The position numbers and the translations under genes were made by a program. The notes under the pieces are model-generated. The model searched no databases. It had not been told where the DNA came from and saw only the letters and a list, made by a program, of their open reading frames with translations. A DNA stretch of 64,000 bases from an uncultured Thermoanaerobaculia bacterium (lineage in GTDB: Bacteria; Acidobacteriota; Thermoanaerobaculia; Multivoradales; CAZRFU01): positions 34,409 through 98,408 of the forward strand of contig CAZRFU010000008.1 of NCBI GenBank assembly GCA_964599475.1, written 5' to 3'. Shown here piece after piece: positions 44,363 to 61,189 of the stretch. Each line of letters begins with the position of its first letter. The first letter of the stretch is position 1.

Positions 44363-44716
44363 AAGCCGCTGGTCCACTTCGACCATTCGCCAGGTACGGA
44401 AGCTCCGCTGTGGTCACCCGAGCCTTCGCCGCGCTCACACAGCTGCCTGCTCTGGTCGGTGTCACCCCTCTCGAGAAGCGTTCCCGGACCCGCGAGCGCG
44501 CTTCCGCGATCCTCGAGGCAATCGAGTGCGTCGCCCAGGCGGTGCTTCCGCAATGAGCTGGGAGGCGAAGGATGCGAGAGCCAGAGGGTCCACCGCCCTT
44601 GCCTGGCTTAGGTGTCCGACAGCGTGTGCCATGGTAGCCTTCCCAGTAAAGACTCATGACGCATCGGCAGCCCTCGGCACAATTGCCACGGTGACAGGGA
44701 GCCAGAGGAGATCGAC

Positions 44717-46096
44717 ATGTGGCGCCACCACCTCCGCAGCGCAACTGCTGCCGTTTCTCTGCTCCTGCTCGCCCAGTCGGTAGCGGCCGGCGCAGAGAGC
44801 CTCGCCACCGAAACCGAACAGAGGGCTGCTGCCGGTGCAGCGAGGGTTGGAGCCGGGATTGAACAGGACCTCGTGCCACCGCCACTCCTGGCGCGGCCGG
44901 CACCTGAAACCAGCAATCGCTTCTGGTTCACCGGCCATGAGCACGACCCGGCCACCGGCCTGATCTACGCAGGAGCGCGCTACTACGACCCCTCCATCGG
45001 TAGATTCATCTCGGCCGATCCCTTCCCTGGCTTCGCCGATGTCCCTGCGAGTCTCAACAAGTACCTCTACGCCCACGGCAATCCGACGGTCTACGTCGAT
45101 CCAGACGGTCGGCTGGCGATCGTGCCGATTCTTCTCGCCGGAGCTCTCGGAGCCGAGATCGGTTTCTTCGCGGATCTGATCGTGCAGGAGATCGAGCACG
45201 GTGCCACCGACATCGGCTCGTTTCTGCGCAACGACTACGATCCTGTGAGAGGCGTTCTCAGCACCGCCGCCGGCGCGGTTTCGGGAGGCGTCGGCGGCGG
45301 TCTTGCACAGGCGGGTGTTCGCACGTCCGTCGCAGTGGCGACCTCCCTGACCGTCGACAGCGCCCTTGACACCGGAATCGAGATTGCGACGCTCGAGCCC
45401 GGCCAAAGGCCCGATCTCGCCCGCAGGTTTGGTACCAATCTCGCGGTGAACACCGCCATGTTGGGCGTGGCGACCGGTGCCGCGAGGCTCCTGCCGTCGC
45501 GGGCGGGTGCCACCACCTTGATCGAAGAGTCTACCAGCGGCCCCGGCACAGGAAACTTCTCGCAATCGTCGTTCACGGCACCGGCCGGCGTCGACGAGGT
45601 CTCGCAAGTCCTTGGCAGCCGCCCGACTCTGTCGATCGCGCAAGCGCGTGCTCTTCCGCAACCCCATCGTGGCGTGATCCTGGTACGCGAGCCGCCCCTG
45701 CCCGCTACCGCCTCGGCGGCCCGACGGGTCGCCGCGGACTTCGAGTCGGGGACGCATGGGACCCTGTCCGATCCAGCCACTCGTGAGCGCATTGTGCCAG
45801 CGATTCGGTTCGACAACCCGAACCCAGCAGGCTCGAACTTCGTCAAGCTGGACGGCCTGGAGAGCGCAACGCGCCTCATCGACGCAAAGACTCGGCTGTT
45901 GACGTTCACCTCGCGGGGTACCCAGCTCTTCCCTCAGCGCGGTGACCTGCGCCGGCTCAGCGAGGCAGTTCGACAGAATCCCGGTCTGGAGGTGATCCTC
46001 GAGTTCCCTGACGCGCGTTCGCTCCGGGAAGCGCGGCAGCTTCTCCTGGAAAGCGGCATCACCAACCTACGAACCCGGCTGCGGGGAACACCATGA
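44717..46096 (+). CDS. RHS repeat-associated core domain protein with Sec signal peptide and C-terminal PD-(D/E)xK-like toxin domain (mini-Rhs polymorphic toxin)
   Basis: Signal peptide MWRHHLRSATAAVSLLLLAQSVAAGA. RHS core FTGHEHDPATGLIYAGARYYDPSIGRFISADP...NKYLYAHGNPTVYVDPDGR (aa 68-132). Gly-rich hydrophobic segments. C-terminus VPAIRFDNPNPAGSNFVKLDGLESATRLIDAKT. GAGGAG RBS. Confidence 0.85.
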   Translation: MWRHHLRSATAAVSLLLLAQSVAAGAESLATETEQRAAAGAARVGAGIEQDLVPPPLLARPAPETSNRFWFTGHEHDPATGLIYAGARYYDPSIGRFISADPFPGFADVPASLNKYLYAHGNPTVYVDPDGRLAIVPILLAGALGAEIGFFADLIVQEIEHGATDIGSFLRNDYDPVRGVLSTAAGAVSGGVGGGLAQAGVRTSVAVATSLTVDSALDTGIEIATLEPGQRPDLARRFGTNLAVNTAMLGVATGAARLLPSRAGATTLIEESTSGPGTGNFSQSSFTAPAGVDEVSQVLGSRPTLSIAQARALPQPHRGVILVREPPLPATASAARRVAADFESGTHGTLSDPATRERIVPAIRFDNPNPAGSNFVKLDGLESATRLIDAKTRLLTFTSRGTQLFPQRGDLRRLSEAVRQNPGLEVILEFPDARSLREARQLLLESGITNLRTRLRGTP

Positions 46097-46139
46097 GCCG
46101 GCTACCACTGCTCGCCGGTCTGACGCACGGCCACAAACG

Positions 46140-46838
46140 ATGCTGAACGGCGCTGGGACAAACGCCAGCTGGCTGCTGGCGCGCTCGCGACCAGTCGTCG
46201 GGGAGCCGTTGCCGGAGCACCACCACCGAGTCGCTCGCGCAGTAGCCGGGCTGCCCCCCGCCTGGCGCCCCATGCCAGGCTTTGCCGACGCGCTGCCAGA
46301 AATCGGCGATGAACTGAGTACGACCGCGGAACTAGGCATCCTGCCAAGCGCCCTGGCTCGCCTCACCTACGTCTATCGATCAGGCCAGTACCTTCGAGAC
46401 GCTGCCGAGTTCGACGACGTACTCTCCATGCGTTCGGAGCTCGATCTGGACGCCTATCTCCAATGGGCCCACGTCGTGGCGCCGACCTGGATCTCAGCGC
46501 TGCCGGCCTACCGCGCTGCAATCTTCACGGACATCGACCTGGCCCTCGACGATTGGGACCGGGCCGGTTCCCGAGGAGCAGAAACTGGCCGGGACGAAGA
46601 CGGGCGAGACTCGGTCTTCCGAATCTGGCCCGTCAGCTTCTGGGACCGCGAGCTGTGCCGACGTGCCTGGGGGCTTTCACCCGAGCGAATCGCGACCGCG
46701 CTCGCACCGCTGGTTCAGGAGACGCAGCTGATTGCCGATGGCATCCTGGTCATTACGAGCGATCGGATACCCACGCGCGACGAGGTCATTGCGACCAGTG
46801 ACCTTCTGCTGGCGGTCTTGGCCGAGGCCAAAGGCTGA
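46140..46838 (+). CDS. Hypothetical protein, candidate immunity protein 1 (paralogue of 46861-47613)
   Basis: Sits immediately downstream of the Rhs toxin. Shares YLRDAA.(F/Y)DD and an about 65-aa near-identical C-terminal block (DSVFRIWPVSFWD.ELCRRAWGLSPE...LIADG.LVIT.DRIP.RDEVIATSD) with the next gene. Confidence 0.6.
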   Translation: MLNGAGTNASWLLARSRPVVGEPLPEHHHRVARAVAGLPPAWRPMPGFADALPEIGDELSTTAELGILPSALARLTYVYRSGQYLRDAAEFDDVLSMRSELDLDAYLQWAHVVAPTWISALPAYRAAIFTDIDLALDDWDRAGSRGAETGRDEDGRDSVFRIWPVSFWDRELCRRAWGLSPERIATALAPLVQETQLIADGILVITSDRIPTRDEVIATSDLLLAVLAEAKG

Positions 46839-46860
46839 TGGCCTGGCGCGGCGGCGGACT

Positions 46861-47613
46861 GTGACCAGGCAGTACTTCAGCGACCGAGCTGCGCTCCCTG
46901 TCTCGCCCGAGTTCCGGGCGAGGCCCAGACTCGACCTCTCAGCTGAGGATCTGCACCGACAGATCGTTGGAGCCCTGGAGGGCGCTCCGCCGCCCTGGGG
47001 ACTGACCAGCGCGGCCTCGAGTCCGGCGACAGAGGATCTCGTCACCATCTTTCCGCTGACTTTCCAGACTCAGCCAGCCCCGGTCGAGATCCTCGAAAGC
47101 CATCTCTCCTACGCGCTGCGCAGCGCCGCCTACTTGAGAGACGCAGCGCAATACGATGACCAGCTGGTCTTGCGCTTCGTTCCGGCTCCGAACGCAAGCT
47201 TGGGGACCTTGGGTGAGTGGGTGGCCAATTCCGCGCAGATCATGGGCGCCTATCGAGGGGCCCTGGTGGTTGACGAAGAGCTCGCCGCTGACGACTGGGA
47301 AGCGTGCATGCGCCTTGGCCGAGACGGCGTTCGTGACGTCGATGGGCGCGACTCGGTCTTCCGAATTTGGCCCGTCAGCTTCTGGGACACCGAGCTCTGC
47401 CGACGTGCCTGGGGGCTCTCACCCGAGCACGTCGCAACGGTGCTCGCCCCGCTGGTGCAGGAGTCTCGGCTGATCGCCGATGGTGTTCTGGTCATCACGA
47501 CCGATCGGATCCCCAGTCGCGACGAGGTCATCGCGACGAGCGACCGGCTTCAGGTGGCGCTGACCGCTGCTGCGGCCGAGGGGCGACTCCGAAAGGAGGA
47601 AGCGAGCTCGTGA
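46861..47613 (+). CDS. Hypothetical protein, candidate immunity protein 2 (tandem paralogue)
   Basis: GTG 46861 is chosen as the first in-frame start after the upstream stop (the track ORF begins at 46732 inside the previous gene). The C-terminal 196-nt block 47350-47545 aligns without gaps to 46608-46803. Confidence 0.6.
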   Translation: MTRQYFSDRAALPVSPEFRARPRLDLSAEDLHRQIVGALEGAPPPWGLTSAASSPATEDLVTIFPLTFQTQPAPVEILESHLSYALRSAAYLRDAAQYDDQLVLRFVPAPNASLGTLGEWVANSAQIMGAYRGALVVDEELAADDWEACMRLGRDGVRDVDGRDSVFRIWPVSFWDTELCRRAWGLSPEHVATVLAPLVQESRLIADGVLVITTDRIPSRDEVIATSDRLQVALTAAAAEGRLRKEEASS

Positions 47614-48623
47614 GCGAAGTCCGGACCTCCGCCGCTCGCGCGCGGATCGTGGCACTGCGCTCGGCTGTAGCCGGGTTGCTGCTCCTGGGACTCGGGTGTG
47701 CGGCCACGGTCCCACCCGAGAGCGCCGCCGAGCCTCACGCGGTCGAGCTGATCAGGCGTGCGATTCCGGCGCAGAGCGCGCGCGTGGTGGCGGCTTCTGC
47801 GGCGCGCAAGCCGGGCATGGCGACCGTCGTGCTGATCCGGACCGCACATCTCAACGAGGCACCGACTCCGGAGCTCGGCCTGCCGCGCTACGACGCCGTG
47901 GAACGCGGCAAGCTGGTGCCGGTCTTGGTGCAGGCGTTCGAGACCGTCGTTGCCCTCGTCGAGGCGGGCCACCGCGTGGTGGTGGCCGAAGGGACGCCCT
48001 GGCGGGTGGGCGACGAACAGCTGGCGACCATGGCCGGCCTCGGAATCTTCCCCGACCTTGCCGACATCCTCGGCGCCGCAGCGCCGCAGCGCCGTGGCCT
48101 CATCGTCGAGGCCTTGCAGCGCGGCAGCAATCTCGACCTCTCGCTTGCGGTGGCCGCGGCGTTCGGGCCGACGGCCGTCGTCGAGGGGGTAGAAAGCGAC
48201 GAGACCATCCTGCGGATGCTGAAGGTCGGCTCCGTGCTCACCGCTGTCGAGCTCGGGCTCGCCCGGCCCGAGTGGCGGCAGCTGGCCGCGGCAGTCCGCA
48301 GCGGGCGCGCCGACGACGCCGAACGCGAGCGCTACACCATCCTGCGGCGGCAGGCGCTCGACGTCATCGACCGTTTCGTGCAGGAGGTCATCGGCGCACG
48401 CGACCGCGAGCTGGTCGATGGAGCGCTCGCGCTGGCGTTACGCGAGGGCGCGGACACCGTGCTCCTGCCGGCCGGTGGATTCCATACTCCGGGCATGCTC
48501 GCCGAGCTCGAGGTCCGCGGAGCCGGGTACGTGGTGATCGAGCCGATCGCCTACGCCGACGCGGCACCTACCCTCGATGCCTGGCGGGACAACCTCGTTC
48601 GCCGCCTTCCTGCGCTGCCGTAA
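47610..48623 (+). CDS. Lipoprotein of unknown function, translationally coupled to the immunity-like gene
   Basis: GTG 47610 overlaps the upstream stop (GTGA) and follows AAGGAGGA. Lipobox-like LLLLGLGC. 337 aa. No recognised family. Confidence 0.6.
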   Translation: MSEVRTSAARARIVALRSAVAGLLLLGLGCAATVPPESAAEPHAVELIRRAIPAQSARVVAASAARKPGMATVVLIRTAHLNEAPTPELGLPRYDAVERGKLVPVLVQAFETVVALVEAGHRVVVAEGTPWRVGDEQLATMAGLGIFPDLADILGAAAPQRRGLIVEALQRGSNLDLSLAVAAAFGPTAVVEGVESDETILRMLKVGSVLTAVELGLARPEWRQLAAAVRSGRADDAERERYTILRRQALDVIDRFVQEVIGARDRELVDGALALALREGADTVLLPAGGFHTPGMLAELEVRGAGYVVIEPIAYADAAPTLDAWRDNLVRRLPALP

Positions 48624-48687
48624 ATCGGCCGATTCGGGGATTGCACCGGACCCGAGGTCGCGGTCGGTCGCAACCCCGGGCCGATGA

Positions 48688-50070
48688 CTACTTCAGATCG
48701 ACGACCAATGCCGCGCCGACGACTCGCGGATCGGCGACGTCGACGTCCGGTCGAGCGAGGTCGAGCACGATGTGCAGGCGGTTGCCAGGGTGGAGGCCGG
48801 TGCGCACGCGTGTCAGCTCGCTGGTGCCGGCTTCGTAGGTGCCGCGATCGGGTGGAGCCTGGACCCCCTGGAGTTGGAGGATGGCGCGGGGATTGTCGCC
48901 GCCCATCCGGGAGTTGGTGAAGGAGACCCGATCCATCGCCCCGTCGCCGAGGATGACGACACGGGTCGAGCGCACGCCGGGCTCGACCTCGACCCGCACC
49001 ACCCGCGTAAACGGGGTCGCCGGCACCGGCCGCGCCACCTCCGGGGCCGGCTCGCTCACCGGCTCGGGTGTGGCGACTGGCCGCGCCACCGGGGCTTCAA
49101 CGGCCACTTCGGCAATGGCGTCCGCAGCGGGTTCCTCGACGTCGGCGACACCAGCCGTCTCGTCGATCGGCTCGGCGACGACCGAAACGCTCTCGCCGGC
49201 GGTTTCGGCCGTTTCCTCGGGCGGCAGGCTCGATGCCACCTCGGAGCTCGTCTCCGGCGCAGCCTCGGACTCAGCGAAGTACTTTCCCGCAACCCGTTCC
49301 CACCCGCCCAGCGCGAGCCATCCGGCCGCCGCTGCGACGCCGAGCAGCGCCACCACCGCCAAAGCTCGACGGCCGCTCTGGTTGCGCCGCGAGCGCGCCG
49401 ACGTCAGCTCGGGCCACGCGCGTTTGCGATCGGGAATGGGGCCGACCTTCGAGTCTTCCTCCCAGTTCGGCATCTCGACGGGGCGAGGGACAAGAGGCGC
49501 GGGCGCAGCCTTGGCCTGCAACGAGCTCGACGCGACCGCAGCGGGATCGAGGGCGTCGTACGTGCGCGACTTCGCCGCCGGCACGGAGGTCGCCAGAGGC
49601 TCCGGCATCTCGATCGGCGGCAGCAGGGGCTGGAGCGCCTCGGCCGGTCTCGAGACCGGCTCTTCGACGACCGGCGCGGCTGGGCTCGGCTGCGGCAACG
49701 GCTCGACCTCGGCCACCGGACCGAGAGCCTCGGCCAGGCGCGCTGCGCCGTCGCCCTCGAGGCTCACGAAGCGAATCCCGATTCCCGGGGGGCGCCCAGG
49801 GCCCTCGTAGCTCCAGCGCCGCCACGCGACCACCCCACGCCCTTCGATCGACGCCGGCGTCGCCGTCAGACTCAGCTCGAAGGTGAGCTCCGAGCCTTCC
49901 GGCGGCGGATCGGTCAAGGTCACGAACATGCCGCCATCCGACAGGTTCGAGAGGTAGCCGGTCACGTATGATTCGTGGCCCTCGAGCCACAACCAGGCGA
50001 TGCCGTCGGAGTCGAGGCGCTCCGAGGTCCGCGACGCGGTCCCGAGCGGTGCAGGACGATCGCTGCTCAC
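48688..50070 (-). CDS. Transmembrane PilZ-domain (c-di-GMP receptor) protein with periplasmic C-terminal AMIN domain
   Basis: PilZ motifs RTSER (RxxxR) and NLSDGG ((D/N)xSxxG) at aa 14-47. Pro/Ala/Glu-rich linkers. One TM (ALAVVALLGVAAAAGWLAL). C-terminal AMIN-like beta domain (VVRVEVEPGVRSTRVVILGDG...LHIVLDLA). GTG 50070 overlaps the upstream stop. Confidence 0.8.
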   Translation of the reverse strand: MSSDRPAPLGTASRTSERLDSDGIAWLWLEGHESYVTGYLSNLSDGGMFVTLTDPPPEGSELTFELSLTATPASIEGRGVVAWRRWSYEGPGRPPGIGIRFVSLEGDGAARLAEALGPVAEVEPLPQPSPAAPVVEEPVSRPAEALQPLLPPIEMPEPLATSVPAAKSRTYDALDPAAVASSSLQAKAAPAPLVPRPVEMPNWEEDSKVGPIPDRKRAWPELTSARSRRNQSGRRALAVVALLGVAAAAGWLALGGWERVAGKYFAESEAAPETSSEVASSLPPEETAETAGESVSVVAEPIDETAGVADVEEPAADAIAEVAVEAPVARPVATPEPVSEPAPEVARPVPATPFTRVVRVEVEPGVRSTRVVILGDGAMDRVSFTNSRMGGDNPRAILQLQGVQAPPDRGTYEAGTSELTRVRTGLHPGNRLHIVLDLARPDVDVADPRVVGAALVVDLK

Positions 50071-51104
50071 CCTGCCAACTTCTCCCAATCCGAATCGGCA
50101 GCATCCTGGGCGATCGCCAGGCCTCCTTCGGCGCCGATGAACACGGGATCCTTGACCCGGCTGACCTCGGCGCCACCGAGCTCTTCCATCTCGGTCTCGA
50201 GGGCTTCCTTCAAGCCACGGATCATCGAGCCACAACCCGACAGCAGGATGTTGCGGCGCACACGATCCTGGAACTCGGGCTCGACTCGCGCGAGCAGGTC
50301 GGCCATGGTTTCGGCCACCGGGGCCACCAGGGCTTCACACGCCGACCGGACCTCGGCGGTGATGTCGAGCTGGGTGGGTTTGCCGGCCACCGGCGCGGTC
50401 ACCACGACTCGATCCCGCGGCTTGCCGACGAAGCTGTACTGCTCCTTCCACTCGCGCACCATGTGGACCGACACCGAGGCGTCGGGGTAGCGCTCGCGGA
50501 TCGCTTTGGAGAGCAGCTCGTCGATCGCGTCACCGGCCATCGTCAGGGTGCGCTGGTCATCCTCGGTGGGATATCGGCCCATCATCACGCAGAAATCGGT
50601 GGTACCGGCGCCGATGTCGACCACCATCGAGTGCAGCAGCGCATCGGCGCCGTAGGCCACCGCGAACGGCTCGGTGACGATCATCAGCGAATCGACCATC
50701 CCCTTGAGGGCATTGCGCAACTGTTGGCGGTTGACCTTGAGCGCCTCGGCGGGAACCCCAACCACCGCGCGTACCGTCGGACCCGACGAGCCGCTCTTTT
50801 CGATGCCGCAGGCAGCCAGCAGGTGGCGCAACAGCTCGCGCACGGCGGCGAGGTCCTTCTCGGAGCCTTCCTTGATCATGCCCTGCTCGAGCGGACGGTG
50901 CAGGTCGAGCATGGTGCGCTGATCGAGCGCTTCCTGCCCCACCAAGACGTGCTTCTTCACCAACTTGCGCGCCACCATGTCGGCCGGCCACCCGACGTAG
51001 GACTTGGCCGTGTGACGCTCTCCGTTGGAGCAGGCGATGGCGCTCTGCGAGGTGCCGAGGTCGATACCGACCAACACCGTTTTCGCAGCGTTCTTCTCGC
51101 TCAT
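50067..51104 (-). CDS. Actin-like ATPase, MamK/MreB family
   Basis: Phosphate-1 VLVGIDLGTSQSAI, phosphate-2 MVVDIGAGTTDF, adenosine motif LLSGCGSMIRGL. N-terminal region collinear with MamK (SYVGWP...VLVGQEALDQRTMLDLHRPLEQGMIK). ATG 51104 after GGGAGGAAGAAG, overlapping the amidase stop (ATGA). Confidence 0.85.
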   Translation of the reverse strand: MSEKNAAKTVLVGIDLGTSQSAIACSNGERHTAKSYVGWPADMVARKLVKKHVLVGQEALDQRTMLDLHRPLEQGMIKEGSEKDLAAVRELLRHLLAACGIEKSGSSGPTVRAVVGVPAEALKVNRQQLRNALKGMVDSLMIVTEPFAVAYGADALLHSMVVDIGAGTTDFCVMMGRYPTEDDQRTLTMAGDAIDELLSKAIRERYPDASVSVHMVREWKEQYSFVGKPRDRVVVTAPVAGKPTQLDITAEVRSACEALVAPVAETMADLLARVEPEFQDRVRRNILLSGCGSMIRGLKEALETEMEELGGAEVSRVKDPVFIGAEGGLAIAQDAADSDWEKLAG

Positions 51105-52141
51105 GGTCTTCTTCCTCCCGCTGGTGGATGCTGAGCATACCGCTGAACGCCCTCGGCGAGGGCATCCGCTACCCGATCGCGATAGGTCGAATCGCGGAAA
51201 CGTTCGGCATCGCGTTGATGGGACAAACACCCAACCTCGGCCAGAATCGCCGGGATCCCGGTTTCGACCAGCACCAGAAACGGTGCAGTTTTGACCCCGC
51301 GGTCGCGCAACATCGGATCACCCCGCCGCAGCGCCAACACCAGCTGTTGATGCACCGCTTGGGCCAATCGCTGCGAGGAGTCCTGGCGCAGGTCGAGGTA
51401 GATCTGATCGAGCAGACGCCGCACGTCCGCAAAGGAGTAGCCGGATTCGGCGTTTTCGGCCGCGGCCAGCGCCTCGAGACGGGGGTCGTCGGTGGCACCG
51501 AGCAGGTAGGTCTCGATGCCGCGCTGCGCCACACTCGGGTCGAGCCAGTTGAGGTGGATCGACAAGAACAGGTCCGCTTCCGCCCGATTGGCGATCGCCG
51601 CGCGTTCCCGCAGCGGCACCGCAACGTCGGCATCGCGCGTCATCACCACCTCGATGCCGGACTGCACCAGGCGCTCGCGCACCCGCAGCGCCAGATCGAG
51701 CGCGACGTCCTTTTCAGCCAGGATGTCGCCCGCCTGTGCGCCGTAGTCTGCGCCGCCGTGTCCCGGATCGAGGACCACGCGACGGACGCCGAGTGGCAGC
51801 GAGGCGGAACGGATTCGTGGCGTGTCGGCGCCGATCGTCGGGTAGGTCGGTTCGGCCAGGGGAAGGGCAAGCTCCTCGGCCTGCGGCACGACCAGTGGCG
51901 TCACCACGGGGGCGGCGACGACTGCGGCAACCGGTCGTCCACCCCAACTCGCCCGCCACCATCCGAGCCCTACGAGCGAGCCTGCGACCACAACCGTCGC
52001 CACCACCGTCGGCCAGCGGCGTCGCGTCCGCGGCGGCCGGCGCTTGCCTGGGGAAAGGTCGCTGACGTTCGCCGCGACCGCCTGCGACAGCAGCCGTTTC
52101 TTGAGCTGTTTGCTCTGCCGCTCGCGGCCCCACCAACGCAT
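51101..52141 (-). CDS. N-acetylmuramoyl-L-alanine amidase (Amidase_3, AmiC-type catalytic domain) with N-terminal membrane anchor
   Basis: VVLDPGHGGADYGA...EKDVALDLALRV...LFLSIHLN...IETY...AILAEVGCLSH motifs. TM anchor WPTVVATVVVAGSLVGLGWW. ATG 52141 is chosen because upstream sequence is heptamer repeat. Confidence 0.9.
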   Translation of the reverse strand: MRWWGRERQSKQLKKRLLSQAVAANVSDLSPGKRRPPRTRRRWPTVVATVVVAGSLVGLGWWRASWGGRPVAAVVAAPVVTPLVVPQAEELALPLAEPTYPTIGADTPRIRSASLPLGVRRVVLDPGHGGADYGAQAGDILAEKDVALDLALRVRERLVQSGIEVVMTRDADVAVPLRERAAIANRAEADLFLSIHLNWLDPSVAQRGIETYLLGATDDPRLEALAAAENAESGYSFADVRRLLDQIYLDLRQDSSQRLAQAVHQQLVLALRRGDPMLRDRGVKTAPFLVLVETGIPAILAEVGCLSHQRDAERFRDSTYRDRVADALAEGVQRYAQHPPAGGRRP

Positions 52142-52160
52142 CGCGTGAGTGTAGCGGGAA

Positions 52161-52218
52161 CGGGGACCAGGGACCGGGAAACAGGGACCCGGGACCGGGG
52201 ACCGGGGACCAGGGAACG
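52161..52218. repeat. Heptanucleotide tandem array (GGGACCN units, about 8 units)
   Basis: cggggac cagggac cgggaaa cagggac ccgggac cggggac cggggac cagggaa cgg, in the divergent amidase/dinB intergenic region. Confidence 0.85.
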
Positions 52219-52235
52219 GAGCCGTGGAGCCCACC

Positions 52236-52268
52236 CCGATACCTGATACCTGATACCCGATACCCCGG
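52236..52268. repeat. Heptanucleotide tandem array (GATACCY units, about 4.5 units)
   Basis: ccgatac ctgatac ctgatac ccgatac cccgg, 15 nt upstream of the dinB GTG start. Confidence 0.85.
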
Positions 52269-55124: not shown

Positions 55125-55158
55125 ATACCCAATACCCAATACCCAATCCCCAATACCC
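55125..55158. repeat. Heptanucleotide tandem array (CCAATAC units, about 5 units)
   Basis: catacc caatacc caatacc caatccc caataccc, ending 22 nt upstream of the AAA+ ATPase start. Confidence 0.85.
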
Positions 55159-55179
55159 TCCCCATGGTAGCCTCCCCCC

Positions 55180-56461: not shown

Positions 56462-59400
56462 CTAGGGCGCCGCCCCTTCTGCTTGCTCCCCCAACACGAT
56501 ATCGCCGACGTCGACATCCTCGGCCGCGAGCACGACCTCCGACCACGCCACGGTGCAGCAGTCCTCGGCCGCCACGCGCAGGCGTGGGAGCCGCACCATC
56601 ACGTCCGTGATGATGAAGGTGCCGTCGCCGGCGGTGACACTCGCTCCACCCGGCACGCGCACCGCAATGCCCTCGAGCGGCGTGCCATCGCCGTCCACCA
56701 CCCGTCCGCTGACGTCGATCTCGAGCACTGAGCCTCCCGCCGGCCGCAGCGCCAGGTTCGACAACCAGACCCCGTCGAGGTCGAGTCGCAGGGTGCCGGC
56801 ACCGGTCTGAGGATCGATCTCCCAGACTCGGTCGGCGGCCGCTGCCAACAGAGTACGGTGCCCGGGCCGCCAGGCCAGTCCGCCGATGGAGCCACTCAGC
56901 GCGACCGGCACGGTGCCGAGGACCGTGCCGTTGGCCGGGTCGAGCAGCTGCAGTGTCCAGTCGTCGCCCGACTCCCGCAGCAGCCAGAGCTGGCGAGTGT
57001 CGAGGTCGAACGCGAGCCCGGCCGAGGACAACGTCCCGAGGTTGGCAACCTCGGTCGACTCACCCGAAATTGGGTCGAGCACGACCAGGGAACTGTTGGT
57101 CCAGGCGAAGTCGAAGGTGACGCCCAACATCCTGCCGTCAGCCGGGTCGAACGTGAGGTCGAGCACACGACTCGAGAACACCGCCGGCTCGGACAGAGGC
57201 AGACCCGAGGACAGGTCGACCCGCTGGAGACCTTCACGGATCGTTTCCGGCTCCGGCTCCTGGCCCTCCCCCTTCAGATCGGGGCCCTGCAGGACGGCGG
57301 GCTGGAGGTGGGCGTACACCCAATAGCCACCTTCGAGGTCGAAGCTCGCCGCGATCGGATGGGTATCGAAGTCCATCGTGGCGGCAGGCGCCTGGGCTGC
57401 CGTGAGCGGATCGAGAATGGTGACAAGGTCCTCAGTGCCGGAGGCCATCAGCGGCGCCCCGACGACCACGTCGCCGATGTCGGTCACACCCCCCGGCGTA
57501 GCCGGGCCGAAAGCCGACCGGCCCACCAGCTCGACCCCGGAAGCCGCGTCGATCACCGACGCCGAACAGCCGAAGCCGGCACCGCCGGTGGGCAGGCCAA
57601 CGAAGCTGAAGGTCCCATCGACCGCACTCGTGGTGGTCGCCGAGCCACAGCGCACCGTGGCTCCGGCGCGCGGCACGCCGAAATCGTCGACCACCCGGCT
57701 GACCACGTCCGTGGGGGTCGCGGCCACCACGGTCGCCGTCACCAGCGAGCTGGTCGAGCGGCCGAGGTCGTCGAAGGCGATTGCCTCGATCTCGAGTGGC
57801 CCTGCCACTCCCGGGACCGGCAGCAGCAGCTGGTACGGCGGCGCGCTCAGAGTCGCAAACAGCACGCCCCCGCGCCACACCTCGACGGCGGTGACCTCGC
57901 GGTTGTCGGCCGCAGCAACGATCACCGGCACCAGACCTCCGGCGGCAACCTCGAGGGCATCGGACGGCTCGAGGATCACCACCGCAGGCGCCGGGTCGGG
58001 AATCACCTCGACCTCGACCGCCGGGCTGACCGTCGACTGCCCGAGGTCGTCGGTGGCGGTCGCTTCGAGGGTTACGGTTGGCGCCCCGAGGCCGGTGTAG
58101 ACCGACGTCCGCAGCGGCGAATAGCCTTCGTTTGCCCACGGGCCGCCCTCAACCAGCAGGCCCAAATCGACCAACGCCACGTCGTCGGTGCCGACGACCA
58201 GCACGCGGAAGTCGGAGTCTTCGATAAACGCCGCTCCTGGAGGCGGCGCTAGGATCTGCGCTGCAGGCAGGCCGTCCCCGATCGGCTGCAGAATCACCGG
58301 CTCGGACTGGGTCGTGTTGCCGGCGTTGTCGGTCGCCACGGCCACCAACTCGATCGGATCGAAGGTCAGGGGCGCCTTCACCAGGAAGTGAGCACTCGAT
58401 CGACTGGAGATTCCCACCCTCTGGCCATCGAGCAGCAACTCCACGCGCGCCACACCAACATCGTCACCGGCAACGACCCCAACATCGAAGTACCGGCGCA
58501 CCACAACCTGGTGGCCGGCTGCCGGGTAAGCGATACGCGCTCGAGGCGGCTCGACTCCGATCAGGGCCTCGTATTGGCCAATCCCGAGTGTCCCCGATCC
58601 GTTGCCATCGGTGCGGCCGATCCTGCCACCGGTGATGTACACGAAGCCTCCCGCGAGTGCGATGTCCGTTCCTTCGAAATCGCCTCCCAACCGCAGGACG
58701 TGCCGTAGGACCGGGTTCGGGGGATCGAGATCGAAGATCGGAACCGCCGACGTGTAGTAGTAGTCCGAGGTGAATCCCAGCCCACGATCGATGGCCACGG
58801 CGGTGATACCAAAGGCGTCGGTTGTCGAACCAATCGGTGTGGGATCCTCGGCCAACGTCACATCGAGGGTGCGCACGCCGCCGAGACCATAACCGGAGCC
58901 CTCCGAGGTCCACAAACGGTCGCCTTCAGCAACCACGCCGACCGTCCGCGAATGCCCATCGGCCCGGCTCGGGGAGCTGCCGACGAGATCGGGCGCAGAG
59001 GGATCGTTGATGTCTACGATCGCCACGCCCGCGCGATGGTCCGCGACGTACAGTCGGTTCTGGTCGACGGCCAAGCGCCGCGCCTCGCCTGGGGTGTCGA
59101 CGGTGGCCACCAACACCGGCGCACTTGGGGCCGAAATGTCGAAGACGCTGACTCCGAGGGTGTCGGCGACGTAGAGCCAGGGAGCCGCGGCCACGATGCC
59201 CCAGGCCGGCGCTCTCGTGACGGCTCCGCCAACCCAGGATGGAGCAAGTGGATTGCTCACGTCGACGACACCCACACCCCCGTCGCCGAGGGCAAGGTAG
59301 ACGAGGTTTCCAACAAGCGCGAGATCACGACCGTTGCCACGCGCGGGGAAAACCGGATTCGCGACGACGGTTGGGCTGTCCGGATCGAAGACATCGACGA

Positions 59401-61189
59401 CCATCAGTTGTGCGGTGTGGGTCGCGAGGTAGGCCCAGGGCCACACCACCCGAACTGCGTTCGCAGCGGAGCCTGGCCAGCTGACCCGTCCGCGCGGCCG
59501 CGGCACGAAGACATCGACGGCAACCGGCACTGCGACCTCGATTGGCCCGTTGGCGACCCGCACCACCGTCGCCCCCTCGCTGCCGCCAAAGACGCGGCCG
59601 GGATCGCTGCCGAAGCTCGCGATCGCAAGGTCGTCGGAGTCGTAGGTGGTGCCGTAGGGTGGCGCGGTGGCGTCGAGCATGGTGCCGTCGATCAAGGTCG
59701 CCTCGACCTCGAGGCCGCGCGACGCTTCACCCCACAACACGTTGACCGTGATGTCGAGGCTCGGCGGGCTCACCGCCAGCTCGTCGAGGATCGGTGCCAG
59801 GTTCACACTCTGTGGATCCAGTGGATCGCTTGCGGCAAACACCTCCAGCCCGTCCGAGACCAGGTCGCCGTCAGTATCTCGCAGCAGCGGATTGGTTCCG
59901 GCCGCCACCTCGGCGCCGTCGTTCAGGCGGTCGTCGTCCGAGTCGGGATCGAACGGCCCCGTGCCGAGCTGGAACTCCTCGAGCGTCGAAAGGCGATCGC
60001 GATCCGGGTCGAGCAAAGCGTCGAGCGGGTCGGCCGGGTCGAGCCCGTTGGCGAGCTCCCAGTCGTCGGGCAAGCCGTCGCCGTCGGAGTCTCCGCCAAG
60101 GGTCACCAACAGCGCCAGGAAACCCGTCGCGCCGTCGTGTGACGCCGACACGATTGCTCGACCACTGCCGTTCGCGGTCGCGAGGCCGGTCGGCGAGATC
60201 GACACGATCGAAGCATTGCTGGTGGTCCAACTGGTGCCTTCGTGGGCGGCCACCTCCGATGTCGAGGTGTCGGGGAAGGTGATCGTCGCGGCGAGCTGCG
60301 AGGTTTCCCCAGCGGTGCCGAAGATCGTAACCGGCGCCGTGAGGGTGAGTGTTGCGGGCGACACCGCCGGCGTGTCGAAGTCGATCTCCGGCACCGACAC
60401 CACTCCCCGCGGCGGCACTTCGACGAAGTCCGACTGCCCATGGCGCACCGTGCCGTCCGGGTCGACACAGGTTGCCCGCACCCGGATCCGCCCCATCGTC
60501 GACGGCACGTTCGGCACCACCCACACACCTTCGGCGTCGACCGGGGCCGAGCGGTTCAGCGCCGAAACCGTGCACGTCGGAGTCAAGTCCGGCGTTGCGG
60601 TCAGCGGAGGATCAGGGAGGAGCGGATCGGTCCCGTGGGTGTCCACCTCGGCCCCATCGAGTCGGCCATCGCCATCGGTGTCGGCAACCAGCGGGTGGGT
60701 TCCGCGCTCGCGCTCCTGCCGCGTCGGAAGGCCATCGAGGTCCGCGTCGTCCAGTGCGAGAGCGGGAGTGAGAGGGTCGAGGCCGTGGGCTGTCTCCCAG
60801 TCGTCTGGAAGGCCATCCATATCGAGGTCCCCCGCCTCGCGAGACTCGAGACGGACTGGTCGCGACTCTTGCTGGGCGCCGAAGTGCGAGGTCCAGTAGA
60901 GCACCGCCAGCTCCAGGTCAGCCGCTCGAAGGCCGGTGACGGTCGTTCCCTCGATTGAGACCAGTCCCGGCGGTCGTGCCACCAGCTGCCAGCCGCTCTC
61001 GGCAGTCTCGACAGTCCCGTCGGACAACAAGGCCACGACCTCGACCTCGAGGCTCTCGCCGACCAGCACTCGGCACTCACCGCAGGTCAGCGTGACCTCG
61101 GCCAACCTGGGAGGGCTCGGATCCGAGTCTTGAGCTCCGACGCCAACGCTCAGCACCAGGGCCGCGATGAAAGCGATGCGCCGGCTCAT
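56462..61189 (-). CDS. Giant secreted/surface protein (1575 aa) with TSP3-type calcium-binding repeats, Ig-like domains, LVIVD beta-propeller repeats and carboxypeptidase-regulatory-like domains
   Basis: Signal peptide MSRRIAFIAALVLSVGVGAQ. D-rich TSP3 motifs (DLDMDGLPDDWE, DTDGDGRLDGAEV, DSDGDGLPDDWE, DSDDDRLNDG). LVIVD-type blades (LYVADHRAGVAIVDINDPSAP, LALGDGGVGVVDVSNPLAP). Confidence 0.85.
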   Translation of the reverse strand: MSRRIAFIAALVLSVGVGAQDSDPSPPRLAEVTLTCGECRVLVGESLEVEVVALLSDGTVETAESGWQLVARPPGLVSIEGTTVTGLRAADLELAVLYWTSHFGAQQESRPVRLESREAGDLDMDGLPDDWETAHGLDPLTPALALDDADLDGLPTRQERERGTHPLVADTDGDGRLDGAEVDTHGTDPLLPDPPLTATPDLTPTCTVSALNRSAPVDAEGVWVVPNVPSTMGRIRVRATCVDPDGTVRHGQSDFVEVPPRGVVSVPEIDFDTPAVSPATLTLTAPVTIFGTAGETSQLAATITFPDTSTSEVAAHEGTSWTTSNASIVSISPTGLATANGSGRAIVSASHDGATGFLALLVTLGGDSDGDGLPDDWELANGLDPADPLDALLDPDRDRLSTLEEFQLGTGPFDPDSDDDRLNDGAEVAAGTNPLLRDTDGDLVSDGLEVFAASDPLDPQSVNLAPILDELAVSPPSLDITVNVLWGEASRGLEVEATLIDGTMLDATAPPYGTTYDSDDLAIASFGSDPGRVFGGSEGATVVRVANGPIEVAVPVAVDVFVPRPRGRVSWPGSAANAVRVVWPWAYLATHTAQLMVVDVFDPDSPTVVANPVFPARGNGRDLALVGNLVYLALGDGGVGVVDVSNPLAPSWVGGAVTRAPAWGIVAAAPWLYVADTLGVSVFDISAPSAPVLVATVDTPGEARRLAVDQNRLYVADHRAGVAIVDINDPSAPDLVGSSPSRADGHSRTVGVVAEGDRLWTSEGSGYGLGGVRTLDVTLAEDPTPIGSTTDAFGITAVAIDRGLGFTSDYYYTSAVPIFDLDPPNPVLRHVLRLGGDFEGTDIALAGGFVYITGGRIGRTDGNGSGTLGIGQYEALIGVEPPRARIAYPAAGHQVVVRRYFDVGVVAGDDVGVARVELLLDGQRVGISSRSSAHFLVKAPLTFDPIELVAVATDNAGNTTQSEPVILQPIGDGLPAAQILAPPPGAAFIEDSDFRVLVVGTDDVALVDLGLLVEGGPWANEGYSPLRTSVYTGLGAPTVTLEATATDDLGQSTVSPAVEVEVIPDPAPAVVILEPSDALEVAAGGLVPVIVAAADNREVTAVEVWRGGVLFATLSAPPYQLLLPVPGVAGPLEIEAIAFDDLGRSTSSLVTATVVAATPTDVVSRVVDDFGVPRAGATVRCGSATTTSAVDGTFSFVGLPTGGAGFGCSASVIDAASGVELVGRSAFGPATPGGVTDIGDVVVGAPLMASGTEDLVTILDPLTAAQAPAATMDFDTHPIAASFDLEGGYWVYAHLQPAVLQGPDLKGEGQEPEPETIREGLQRVDLSSGLPLSEPAVFSSRVLDLTFDPADGRMLGVTFDFAWTNSSLVVLDPISGESTEVANLGTLSSAGLAFDLDTRQLWLLRESGDDWTLQLLDPANGTVLGTVPVALSGSIGGLAWRPGHRTLLAAAADRVWEIDPQTGAGTLRLDLDGVWLSNLALRPAGGSVLEIDVSGRVVDGDGTPLEGIAVRVPGGASVTAGDGTFIITDVMVRLPRLRVAAEDCCTVAWSEVVLAAEDVDVGDIVLGEQAEGAAP

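Follow-up and report, generated by a model that had tools for sequence, protein, structure and literature searches.

A membrane-anchored amidase, a MamK-family actin and exchangeable transmembrane adaptors: a probable cell-wall remodeling module of uncultured bacteria

Why should a peptidoglycan amidase, an actin-like ATPase and a transmembrane protein with a predicted receptor domain for cyclic di-GMP (c-di-GMP) be encoded side by side, and do they work together? The question is raised by three consecutive minus-strand genes at positions 48688–52141 of a 64,000-nucleotide stretch of DNA (hereafter the window) from an uncultured Thermoanaerobaculia bacterium of the phylum Acidobacteriota (GenBank assembly GCA_964599475.1, contig CAZRFU010000008.1, positions 34,409 to 98,408). 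An earlier note, made from the sequence without database searches, had described them as a translationally coupled operon and proposed that they form a c-di-GMP-gated, filament-positioned module for cell-wall hydrolysis. We find that the amidase and the actin are an invariant gene pair across several phyla, that the third gene is one of several interchangeable kinds, and that the set is probably an unrecognized cytoskeleton-guided system of cell-wall remodeling.

The layout of the operon is as the earlier note had it. Direct reading of the minus strand places the amidase gene at 51101–52141, the actin gene at 50067–51104 and the PilZ-AMIN gene at 48688–50070, with an ATGA overlap of amidase stop and actin start at 51101–51104 and a GTGA overlap of actin stop and PilZ-AMIN start at 50067–50070. 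GGAGG-like ribosome-binding sites lie 8–10 nucleotides 5′ of the actin and PilZ-AMIN starts. An independent gene call in a public assembly with identical proteins has the same boundaries (346, 345 and 460 amino acids), and a codon-usage gene caller trained on related loci agrees with the public calls for all three genes. That caller is unreliable on loci of ~52%–60% G+C (L001, L005, L018, L033 and L047, such numbers denoting individual loci or contigs in our scans; L001 was read by hand), and the G+C content is ~67% across the whole window. Consensus scans of the operon region for promoters and terminators gave no match. Four-nucleotide overlaps are by themselves ordinary in operons; what exceeds chance here is the comparative conservation.

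Conservation of the amidase–actin pair

The linkage was followed in three reciprocal scans covering one genome per species, and in a fourth seeded with a distant actin from a Nitrospirota locus (L213). With the window actin as query, 80 loci were recovered, 67 of them with enough upstream DNA to be assessed, and an amidase gene lies directly upstream in all 67 (one was first scored negative purely through gene overlap). The carriers are labeled Thermoanaerobaculia, Holophagales, other Acidobacteriota, Binatia, Methylomirabilota, Rokuibacteriota, Entotheonellaceae and Eisenbacteria. The scan with the L213 actin brought in a second, more distant clade, labeled Nitrospirota/Thermodesulfovibrionales, Thermodesulfobacteriota/Syntrophaceae and Aminicenantes, in which the amidase is again upstream in every assessable locus (65/65). 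Querying with the amidase gives the reciprocal result. The closest 13 among the matches listed all adjoin an actin gene, and ~65 generic Amidase_3 genes, also among the matches listed and drawn from Terriglobia, Vicinamibacteria, Desulfobacterota and others, have no actin beside them; this sample of listed matches serves as a built-in negative control. Its two exceptions, L213 and L225 (both Nitrospirota), each carry a more distant MamK-like gene of their own. The linkage also has an edge on the actin side: MamK-like proteins at 40%–47% identity to the L213 query (L307, L309 and L312–L318; eight Planctomycetota and one Geobacteraceae) have no adjacent amidase, and form a separate uncharacterized group.

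The genes flanking the pair are unrelated housekeeping genes that differ by lineage, and the module is therefore self-contained. Genes for an ABC transporter, PheH, a cyclase, PSD, HDAC, M24, glucokinase, SDR, PFOR, VIT1, GGDEF and UDG were considered as further members and rejected as lineage-specific synteny. The amidase and the actin are thus the invariant core, paired without exception at the assessable loci of two deep clades spread over several phyla, and their linkage is not due to chance.

The amidase and the actin

The first gene encodes a bitopic N-acetylmuramoyl-L-alanine amidase of the AmiA/B/C type. Its sole Pfam match is Amidase_3 (1.7e-46, residues 122–333), and it falls far under the cut-offs of the NCBIfam AmiA, AmiB and AmiC models. 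It nevertheless aligns with Escherichia coli AmiA (8c2o) end to end, including an insert of ~45 residues, and the best Foldseek match of its AlphaFold2 (AF2) model is the same structure (E 7e-18, TM-score 0.81 normalized to AmiA, 230 columns), followed by AmiC2, AmiC and AmiB-EnvC (8c0j). The model, built with 75 homologues, has a mean predicted local distance difference test score (pLDDT) of 80.6, a confident catalytic domain and a linker that is modeled at low confidence and without secondary structure. The catalytic domain spans residues 119–337 (51131–51787, minus strand), and within it H128, E143, H196 and E302, presumably the zinc ligands and catalytic residues of Amidase_3 enzymes, are invariant in the 75 homologues. 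The insert (residues 215–263, 51353–51499) aligns with the AmiA segment that we take to be the regulatory helix, autoinhibitory and activator-binding. In an alignment to the insert-less enzyme 5emi it is skipped and the match breaks into two stretches; the model places helices at 220–231, 237–247 and 250–274; and the insert is strongly conserved (ENR.SGYSLAD.R.LL.GIY). Because the amidase keeps this putatively autoinhibitory, activator-binding insert, an activator would still be needed. The module contains no LytM gene of the EnvC, NlpD or ActS kind, and the activator could be a LytM factor encoded elsewhere or the adaptor itself.

The distinctive part of the enzyme is its N terminus. The AF2 model has a helix at residues 2–29 and a second, transmembrane one at residues 44–65. 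The latter agrees with a membrane anchor at residues 43–62 (51956–52015), where the basic stretch RRPPRTRRRW is followed by a hydrophobic run, and by the positive-inside rule the N terminus would be cytoplasmic and the catalytic domain periplasmic. The predicted cytoplasmic part holds a conserved helix at residues 10–31 (52049–52114), SKQLKKRLLSQAVAANVSDLSP, supported by both the homologue consensus (R.KR.LL..AV.ENVD.I.GR.P, 60 homologues) and the model; V22 and N25 are conserved in at least 90% of 75 database homologues, and the helix core ILRGVYEDNLRIIGK is also found in amidases of the second, Nitrospirota clade. Plausibly, the actin filament docks on this helix. That a hydrolase predicted to work in the periplasm keeps such a conserved element in the cytoplasm, and is always encoded beside the gene for a filament protein, is the strongest hint that the sequences offer of a direct link between the two proteins. 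The earlier note had described a membrane-anchored Amidase_3 enzyme free of an AMIN domain, and this holds: neither the Pfam scan nor the AF2 model reveals AMIN or any other targeting domain. Its further suggestion, that AMIN had moved from the amidase onto the receptor protein, gains no direct support; the amidases of the family are free of a targeting domain in every lineage examined. One apparent natural fusion (P0010, 455 amino acids) was rejected as an assembly artifact with an internal duplication.

The second gene encodes an actin-like ATPase of the MamK family. Among NCBIfam models the protein scores 385.3 bits against MamK (NF040964, cut-off 400), compared to 225 against BeeR (cut-off 530) and 83 against MreB (cut-off 293). 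Its clade-1 homologues score 368–377 bits against the MamK model, and the amidase-linked homologue of the Nitrospirota locus L213 passes the cut-off with 416 bits. A phmmer comparison with MamK (5LJW) gives 272 bits over residues 5–343, and the actin segments DLGTS, TEPF, DIGAGTTD and GCGS align with DLGTS, SEPF, DIGAGTTD and GGGS of MamK, which we take to be its nucleotide-binding motifs, DLGTS, DIGAGTTD and GCGS standing for the phosphate-1, phosphate-2 and adenosine motifs; the earlier description of a MamK-like actin with intact motifs is borne out. The protein is 40% identical to MamK of strain AMB-1 and 63%–67% identical to amidase-linked homologues of other phyla in a neighbor-joining tree, where the amidase-linked proteins stand apart from AMB-1 MamK. 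That tree holds a single magnetosome MamK and lacks recovered supports at key nodes, and so does not polarize the ancestral function. The family is large, with 4451 clusters (90% identity) among the relatives of the actin at E ≤ 1e-20. Public databases label the homologues "rod shape-determining protein MreB," and Pfam MreB_Mbl matches the window actin.

Membership of the ParM, MreB and BeeR families was rejected on the family hidden Markov model scores. The ParM-type signal amounts to a weak Alp7A_like_C match (15.7 bits, cut-off 22), no parR-like adaptor gene lies beside the actin, and the surroundings look chromosomal, with housekeeping genes alongside. A grouping with the plasmid-segregation proteins ParM or AlfA, which the earlier note had named among the findings that would count against it, is not what we see. 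Membership of a magnetosome system was likewise rejected: there is no magnetosome-gene domain among the neighbors scanned within ~10 kb in the window, or in the related loci sampled. In these loci taken together the neighbors are DinB, an AAA protein, unknown proteins, LigA, transporters and others of that sort.

The third gene and the surroundings of the operon

The product of the third gene (460 amino acids) is predicted to be bitopic, with a PilZ domain, a linker, one transmembrane helix, a second linker and a C-terminal AMIN-like domain; outside the two domains it consists of Pro/Ala-rich linkers and the single helix. The PilZ domain (residues ~14–118, 49717–50031, minus strand, predicted cytoplasmic) is recognized by Pfam (3.2e-7; 31 bits, cut-off 22.5) and modeled with a pLDDT of ~85. 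Its Foldseek matches are PilZ–c-di-GMP structures of Alg44 (the best), YcgR and MotI, at E 2e-4 to 2e-3. The motifs RTSER (RxxxR, 50017–50031) and NLSDGG ((D/N)xSxxG, 49930–49947) span exactly the interval 49930–50031 to which the earlier note had assigned them, and the motif pair is kept in 51 of 53 distinct members of the PilZ-AMIN family. With its motifs intact, the domain is a predicted c-di-GMP receptor. The transmembrane helix (residues 236–257, 49300–49365) lies within a longer AF2 helix (221–264) and is preceded by the basic stretch RKRAWPELTSARSRRNQSGRR; by the positive-inside rule, this would put the N terminus in the cytoplasm and the C-terminal domain in the periplasm.

That C-terminal domain (residues ~350–460, 48691–49023, minus strand), which the earlier note had placed at about 48691–49000 as a periplasmic AMIN domain, finds support from AF2 and Foldseek and a borderline score from Pfam. 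The Pfam AMIN model (PF11741, cut-off 20.5) gives 16.2 bits in a full-length scan and 21.4 bits for the isolated domain, and matches just 3 of 18 family members at E ≤ 0.1. The AF2 model of the domain, with a pLDDT of ~90, has E. coli AmiC (4BIN, E 9e-5) as its best Foldseek match and also retrieves N-terminal domains of PilQ (4av2, 3jc8 and 4aqz), and a profile of the family has Myxococcus xanthus PilQ as its best PDB match. We take the matched regions of PilQ and AmiC to be their AMIN parts, in the case of AmiC judging from the ~120-column length and the PilQ matches. An AMIN fold is the predicted one; its assignment rests mainly on the model and is the weakest point of the annotation. The plan of the whole protein matches that of FtsN-like proteins (cytoplasmic N terminus, one transmembrane helix, disordered linker, C-terminal peptidoglycan-binding domain), with AMIN where those proteins have SPOR, and SPOR is indeed what the equivalent gene of sister lineages encodes.

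The earlier note had made conservation of the triad beyond this genome a test of its proposal, and the triad does recur. A scan for the family, for which we used a narrowed alignment of locus-derived sequences (a protein homologue search had given just eight matches), found 59 loci with PilZ and AMIN in one open reading frame (ORF), and the amidase and actin genes adjoin 46 of the 52 that could be assessed. Two gene orders are seen, the usual one being PilZ-AMIN, amidase, actin, and the minority one, with PilZ-AMIN last, being that of the window, L002, L011, L062 and L165; the linkage has therefore outlived rearrangement. PilZ-AMIN proteins with a transmembrane helix also occur with no amidase or actin in the fetched flanks, in L143 (Bdellovibrionota), L128, L147, L152 and L154, and the adaptor family may also act outside the module, or its partners may be unlinked in those loci.

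Other lineages have a different gene in this place. In ~20 Holophagales-like and other Acidobacteriota loci the actin gene is followed, usually with a 4-nucleotide overlap, by one for a protein with a conserved helical N-terminal domain of ~75 amino acids, a Pro-rich linker, a transmembrane helix, a linker and a C-terminal SPOR domain. In ~45 loci of the second clade it is a protein with a Response_reg domain, an acidic linker, a transmembrane helix, a linker and SPOR; examples are L213 5848–7266 and L225 1915–3264, with ~45 further loci in the range L242–L311. At the position where the phospho-acceptor Asp would be expected, and where we presume it to lie, these proteins mostly have Asn or Lys; the domain therefore looks like a pseudo-receiver, and would probably act by protein binding rather than phosphorylation. 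A periplasmic SPOR-TPR protein is another case. Taken together, the third gene is exchangeable on one plan: a cytoplasmic input domain, a linker, a transmembrane helix, a second linker and a domain predicted to bind septal peptidoglycan, AMIN or SPOR. SPOR binds glycans denuded by amidases, and AMIN targets AmiC and PilQ to septal peptidoglycan. Since PilZ-AMIN is one of several interchangeable third parts, gating by c-di-GMP would be specific to certain lineages. The proposal of the earlier note therefore stands in part: a filament-associated, signal-gated module fits the findings, and c-di-GMP does not define it.

Two other gene types were seen after the pair. In the Aminicenantes-like loci L292, L293 and L297 a Hanks-type Ser/Thr kinase with a transmembrane helix follows at a gap of ~190–280 nucleotides (with TPR in L297), and may be a fourth kind of signaling partner or mere local synteny. 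In L266–L268, from Candidatus Sulfobium and Thermodesulfovibrionales metagenome-assembled genomes (MAGs), the actin gene is followed by a Ysc84/SYLF gene, assigned by Pfam for L267 and by similar N termini for L266 and L268. The Pfam name of this domain is "Las17-binding protein actin regulator." The N-terminal hydrophobic segment is signal-like, so that the SYLF protein would not share the compartment of the actin, and its position is therefore probably a coincidence.

The operon abuts a region that differs between strains. Contigs L081–L084 carry an identical operon, and their sequence departs from that of the window exactly past the PilZ-AMIN stop codon. Beyond that point the window (39740–48687) has unknown ORFs; the corresponding regions of L081 (12418–19600) and of L082–L084 have an SNF2/DEAD helicase instead, and in L081 the next genes encode an AAA protein, Y4kK and an S8 peptidase. 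The region is a strain-variable island. Within it, at 39740–44362, the window encodes a 1540-amino-acid protein whose sole Pfam matches are C-terminal HEAT repeats. At 44717–47613 there is a 459-amino-acid ORF with the motif YYDPSIGRFISADP, resembling the end of an RHS/YD-repeat core, and then two tandem paralogues (46140–46838 and 46861–47613; 48% identical); none of these three has a Pfam match, and the layout resembles that of a toxin with an array of immunity genes. On the other side, heptamer arrays separate the amidase operon from a divergent dinB gene (GGGACCA ×7.6 at 52156–52219 and CCCGATA ×4.4 at 52235–52265), and a similar array (ATACCCA ×4.9, 55125–55164) lies upstream of an AAA-ATPase gene; these tandem repeats could be regulatory, or belong to a genome-wide repeat family. 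Farther off, at 56462–61189, is a gene for a 1575-amino-acid protein with bacterial TSP3, LVIVD, Big_7 and CarboxypepD_reg domains, probably a surface protein and unrelated to the operon.

Possible function and its alternatives

On balance, and with moderate confidence, we favor a reading in which the gene products form a filament-positioned, signal-gated trans-envelope amidase module, probably serving to split the septal wall. The actin would polymerize beneath the membrane, and the N-terminal helix of the amidase and the cytoplasmic part of the adaptor would dock on the filament. Docking would gather the periplasmic amidase domains and position them along it, and the AMIN or SPOR domain of the adaptor would tie the assembly to septal or amidase-processed peptidoglycan. 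With such tethering, wall cleavage could become confined to one zone and reinforce itself there. In the organism of the window, c-di-GMP bound to PilZ would switch engagement of the adaptor on or off. The process most likely to be served is a septal one, in which peptidoglycan would be split so that daughter cells separate or poles mature.

Several findings weigh against this reading. The carriers found are all uncultured MAGs, and no division-cluster genes lie near the module to link it with the septum. The AMIN call is borderline by Pfam score, and 6 of the 52 assessable PilZ-AMIN loci have no pair nearby. Loci with the pair only are numerous (e.g., LigA-followed ones, and others in Methylomirabilota and Binatia), so that in such genomes the adaptor is either not needed or supplied from another site; one MAG has a LigA-followed pair on L012 and a PilZ-AMIN gene on a separate contig, L144. 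Nor is a common mode of filament binding obvious, since the adaptors have cytoplasmic domains of three unrelated kinds.

Coupling of a cytoskeletal protein or an ATPase to wall hydrolases is a known wider kind of control, and the module can be compared to several instances of it. Closest in logic are FtsA-FtsN-AmiA/B/C and FtsEX-EnvC-AmiA/AmiB. The former, in E. coli, likewise joins a cytoplasmic actin-fold protein, a bitopic peptidoglycan-binding protein and an autoinhibited Amidase_3 enzyme, and the SPOR versions of our third gene look FtsN-like. Here, however, the actin is of MamK type, PilZ or a pseudo-receiver is built into the adaptor, the single operon lies apart from any division cluster, and the amidase is membrane-anchored with a cytoplasmic tail, whereas AmiA, AmiB and AmiC are exported soluble periplasmic proteins, AmiC and AmiB with an N-terminal AMIN domain. 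FtsEX-EnvC shares the principle that a cytoplasmic protein hydrolyzing nucleotides is linked to a regulated amidase by way of membrane proteins, and the window insert aligns with the AmiA/AmiB segment that binds the LytM domain of EnvC; in the present module there is no ABC transporter or LytM factor, and the ATPase is an actin of filament-forming type. Closest in adaptor design is Alg44 of alginate secretion, which also has a cytoplasmic PilZ domain, one transmembrane helix and a periplasmic functional domain, but works with a polysaccharide synthase rather than with an actin and an amidase, and has no AMIN in the periplasm. Bacillus subtilis MreBH-LytE is a precedent for an actin homologue steering a wall hydrolase, differing in its hydrolase (a secreted NlpC/P60 endopeptidase), in the family of its actin, in the process served (growth of the side wall) and in having its genes unpaired. 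In Sinorhizobium, the FtsN-like SPOR protein RgsS and AmiC have been reported to cooperate in division and pole identity (PMC7822825); that pair has no known actin of its own, its genes do not share an operon and its amidase lacks the bitopic design.

The actin itself has two relatives for comparison. MamK (5LJW, 5JYG) is the closest characterized homologue, alignable over its full length and sharing the C-terminal W-x-x-L end, but the genes here are in no magnetosome cluster, and the invariant partner is a peptidoglycan amidase, not a MamJ- or MamY-type protein. BeeR is 29% identical to the window actin, which lacks the disordered N-terminal domain that marks BeeR. It is a MamK-related tubular actin of non-magnetotactic Verrucomicrobiota, for which no cellular function has been given; the words amidase, operon and genomic are all absent from the main text of its description (PMC11929497).

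How else might the conserved pairing be explained? The two genes may be merely co-regulated, for instance for the sake of cell-cycle timing, with the filament organizing some other cargo or organelle. Organelle positioning is the known role of MamK (PMC11929497), and the many two-gene loci would suit such an arrangement. We nevertheless consider it unlikely. Co-transcription would have to account for a pair that is missing from no assessable locus in either clade, whereas the genes around it all change. Translational coupling is frequent, and there are no candidate cargo genes conserved near the pair. The cytoplasmic helix of the amidase points the same way: it is conserved in both amidase-linked clades, and in generic amidases the match to the query starts only at about residue 100. 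The chance seems somewhat smaller again that the module serves a trans-envelope machine at the pole (a type IV pilus, say, or a secretin), by opening peptidoglycan locally for it or by targeting it, instead of splitting the septum. AMIN is typical of PilQ secretins, the best PDB match of the family profile is a PilQ, c-di-GMP commonly controls pili and secretion, and in one Binatia MAG the gene directly upstream of the pair (L018 1936–4701) encodes a GspD-type secretin that has SPOR at its C terminus. This last is an unusual secretin architecture and a single occurrence; in the other ~200 loci no pilus or secretion genes are conserved beside the module. SPOR and AMIN are, moreover, primarily binders of septal peptidoglycan, and the amidase is of the cell-separation type with its regulatory insert.

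The database names and the MreB_Mbl match would fit an MreB-like determinant of elongation or shape that guides the amidase along the side wall, for which there is a parallel in the guidance of LytE by MreBH of B. subtilis. The family scores (83 bits for MreB, far under its cut-off, and 385 for MamK) tell against this, as do the septal type of the partner domains and the finding that neither mreCD nor rodA lies nearby, and we regard it as improbable. Hardly credible at all is the view that the genes belong to, or are left over from, a magnetosome system, or that they serve ParM-type DNA segregation. MamK is the closest characterized relative of the actin, but the gene context, chromosomal in appearance and with no magnetosome-gene domain among the neighbors scanned and no parR-like gene, effectively refutes both, and the Alp7A match is weak. 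We know of no described magnetotactic members of carrier lineages such as Thermoanaerobaculia.

Returning to the reading of a filament-positioned amidase module, we would extend it tentatively, and with some doubt as to its breadth, to the amidase-linked MamK-like proteins as a whole. These may constitute a widespread, unrecognized actin cytoskeleton that positions a membrane-anchored amidase through its cytoplasmic tail, with exchangeable adaptors feeding in c-di-GMP or other signals and anchoring the complex to septal peptidoglycan. The carriers are labeled Acidobacteriota (including Aminicenantes), Nitrospirota, Thermodesulfobacteriota, Methylomirabilota, Binatia and Entotheonellaceae. The earlier note knew of no characterized system of this composition, and our full-text literature searches found no published description of an amidase–MamK-like or PilZ-AMIN module.

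How amidase activity is confined to the right place is a central question of bacterial division, to which FtsEX-EnvC, NlpD and the FtsN/SPOR feedback are known answers. A membrane-anchored amidase with a conserved cytoplasmic handle, encoded beside an actin, suggests direct cytoskeletal positioning from the cell interior, and the exchange of PilZ and pseudo-receiver adaptors suggests that wall splitting can be gated by a second messenger or by signals of another kind. If this is true, it would be a new trans-membrane mode of control over wall hydrolysis. In the literature searched, no cellular role has been assigned to relatives of MamK outside magnetotactic bacteria, BeeR among them, and an obligate gene partnership with an amidase gives them a concrete, testable function. 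The finding is also relevant to a possible origin of the magnetosome actin in a cytoskeleton for wall remodeling: on the wider reading, MamK would have been recruited from such a system, or would share a common ancestor with it. The hosts of the module belong to abundant and poorly studied phyla of soil and sediment, whose cell biology is almost unknown, and it is there that this form of wall remodeling may operate.

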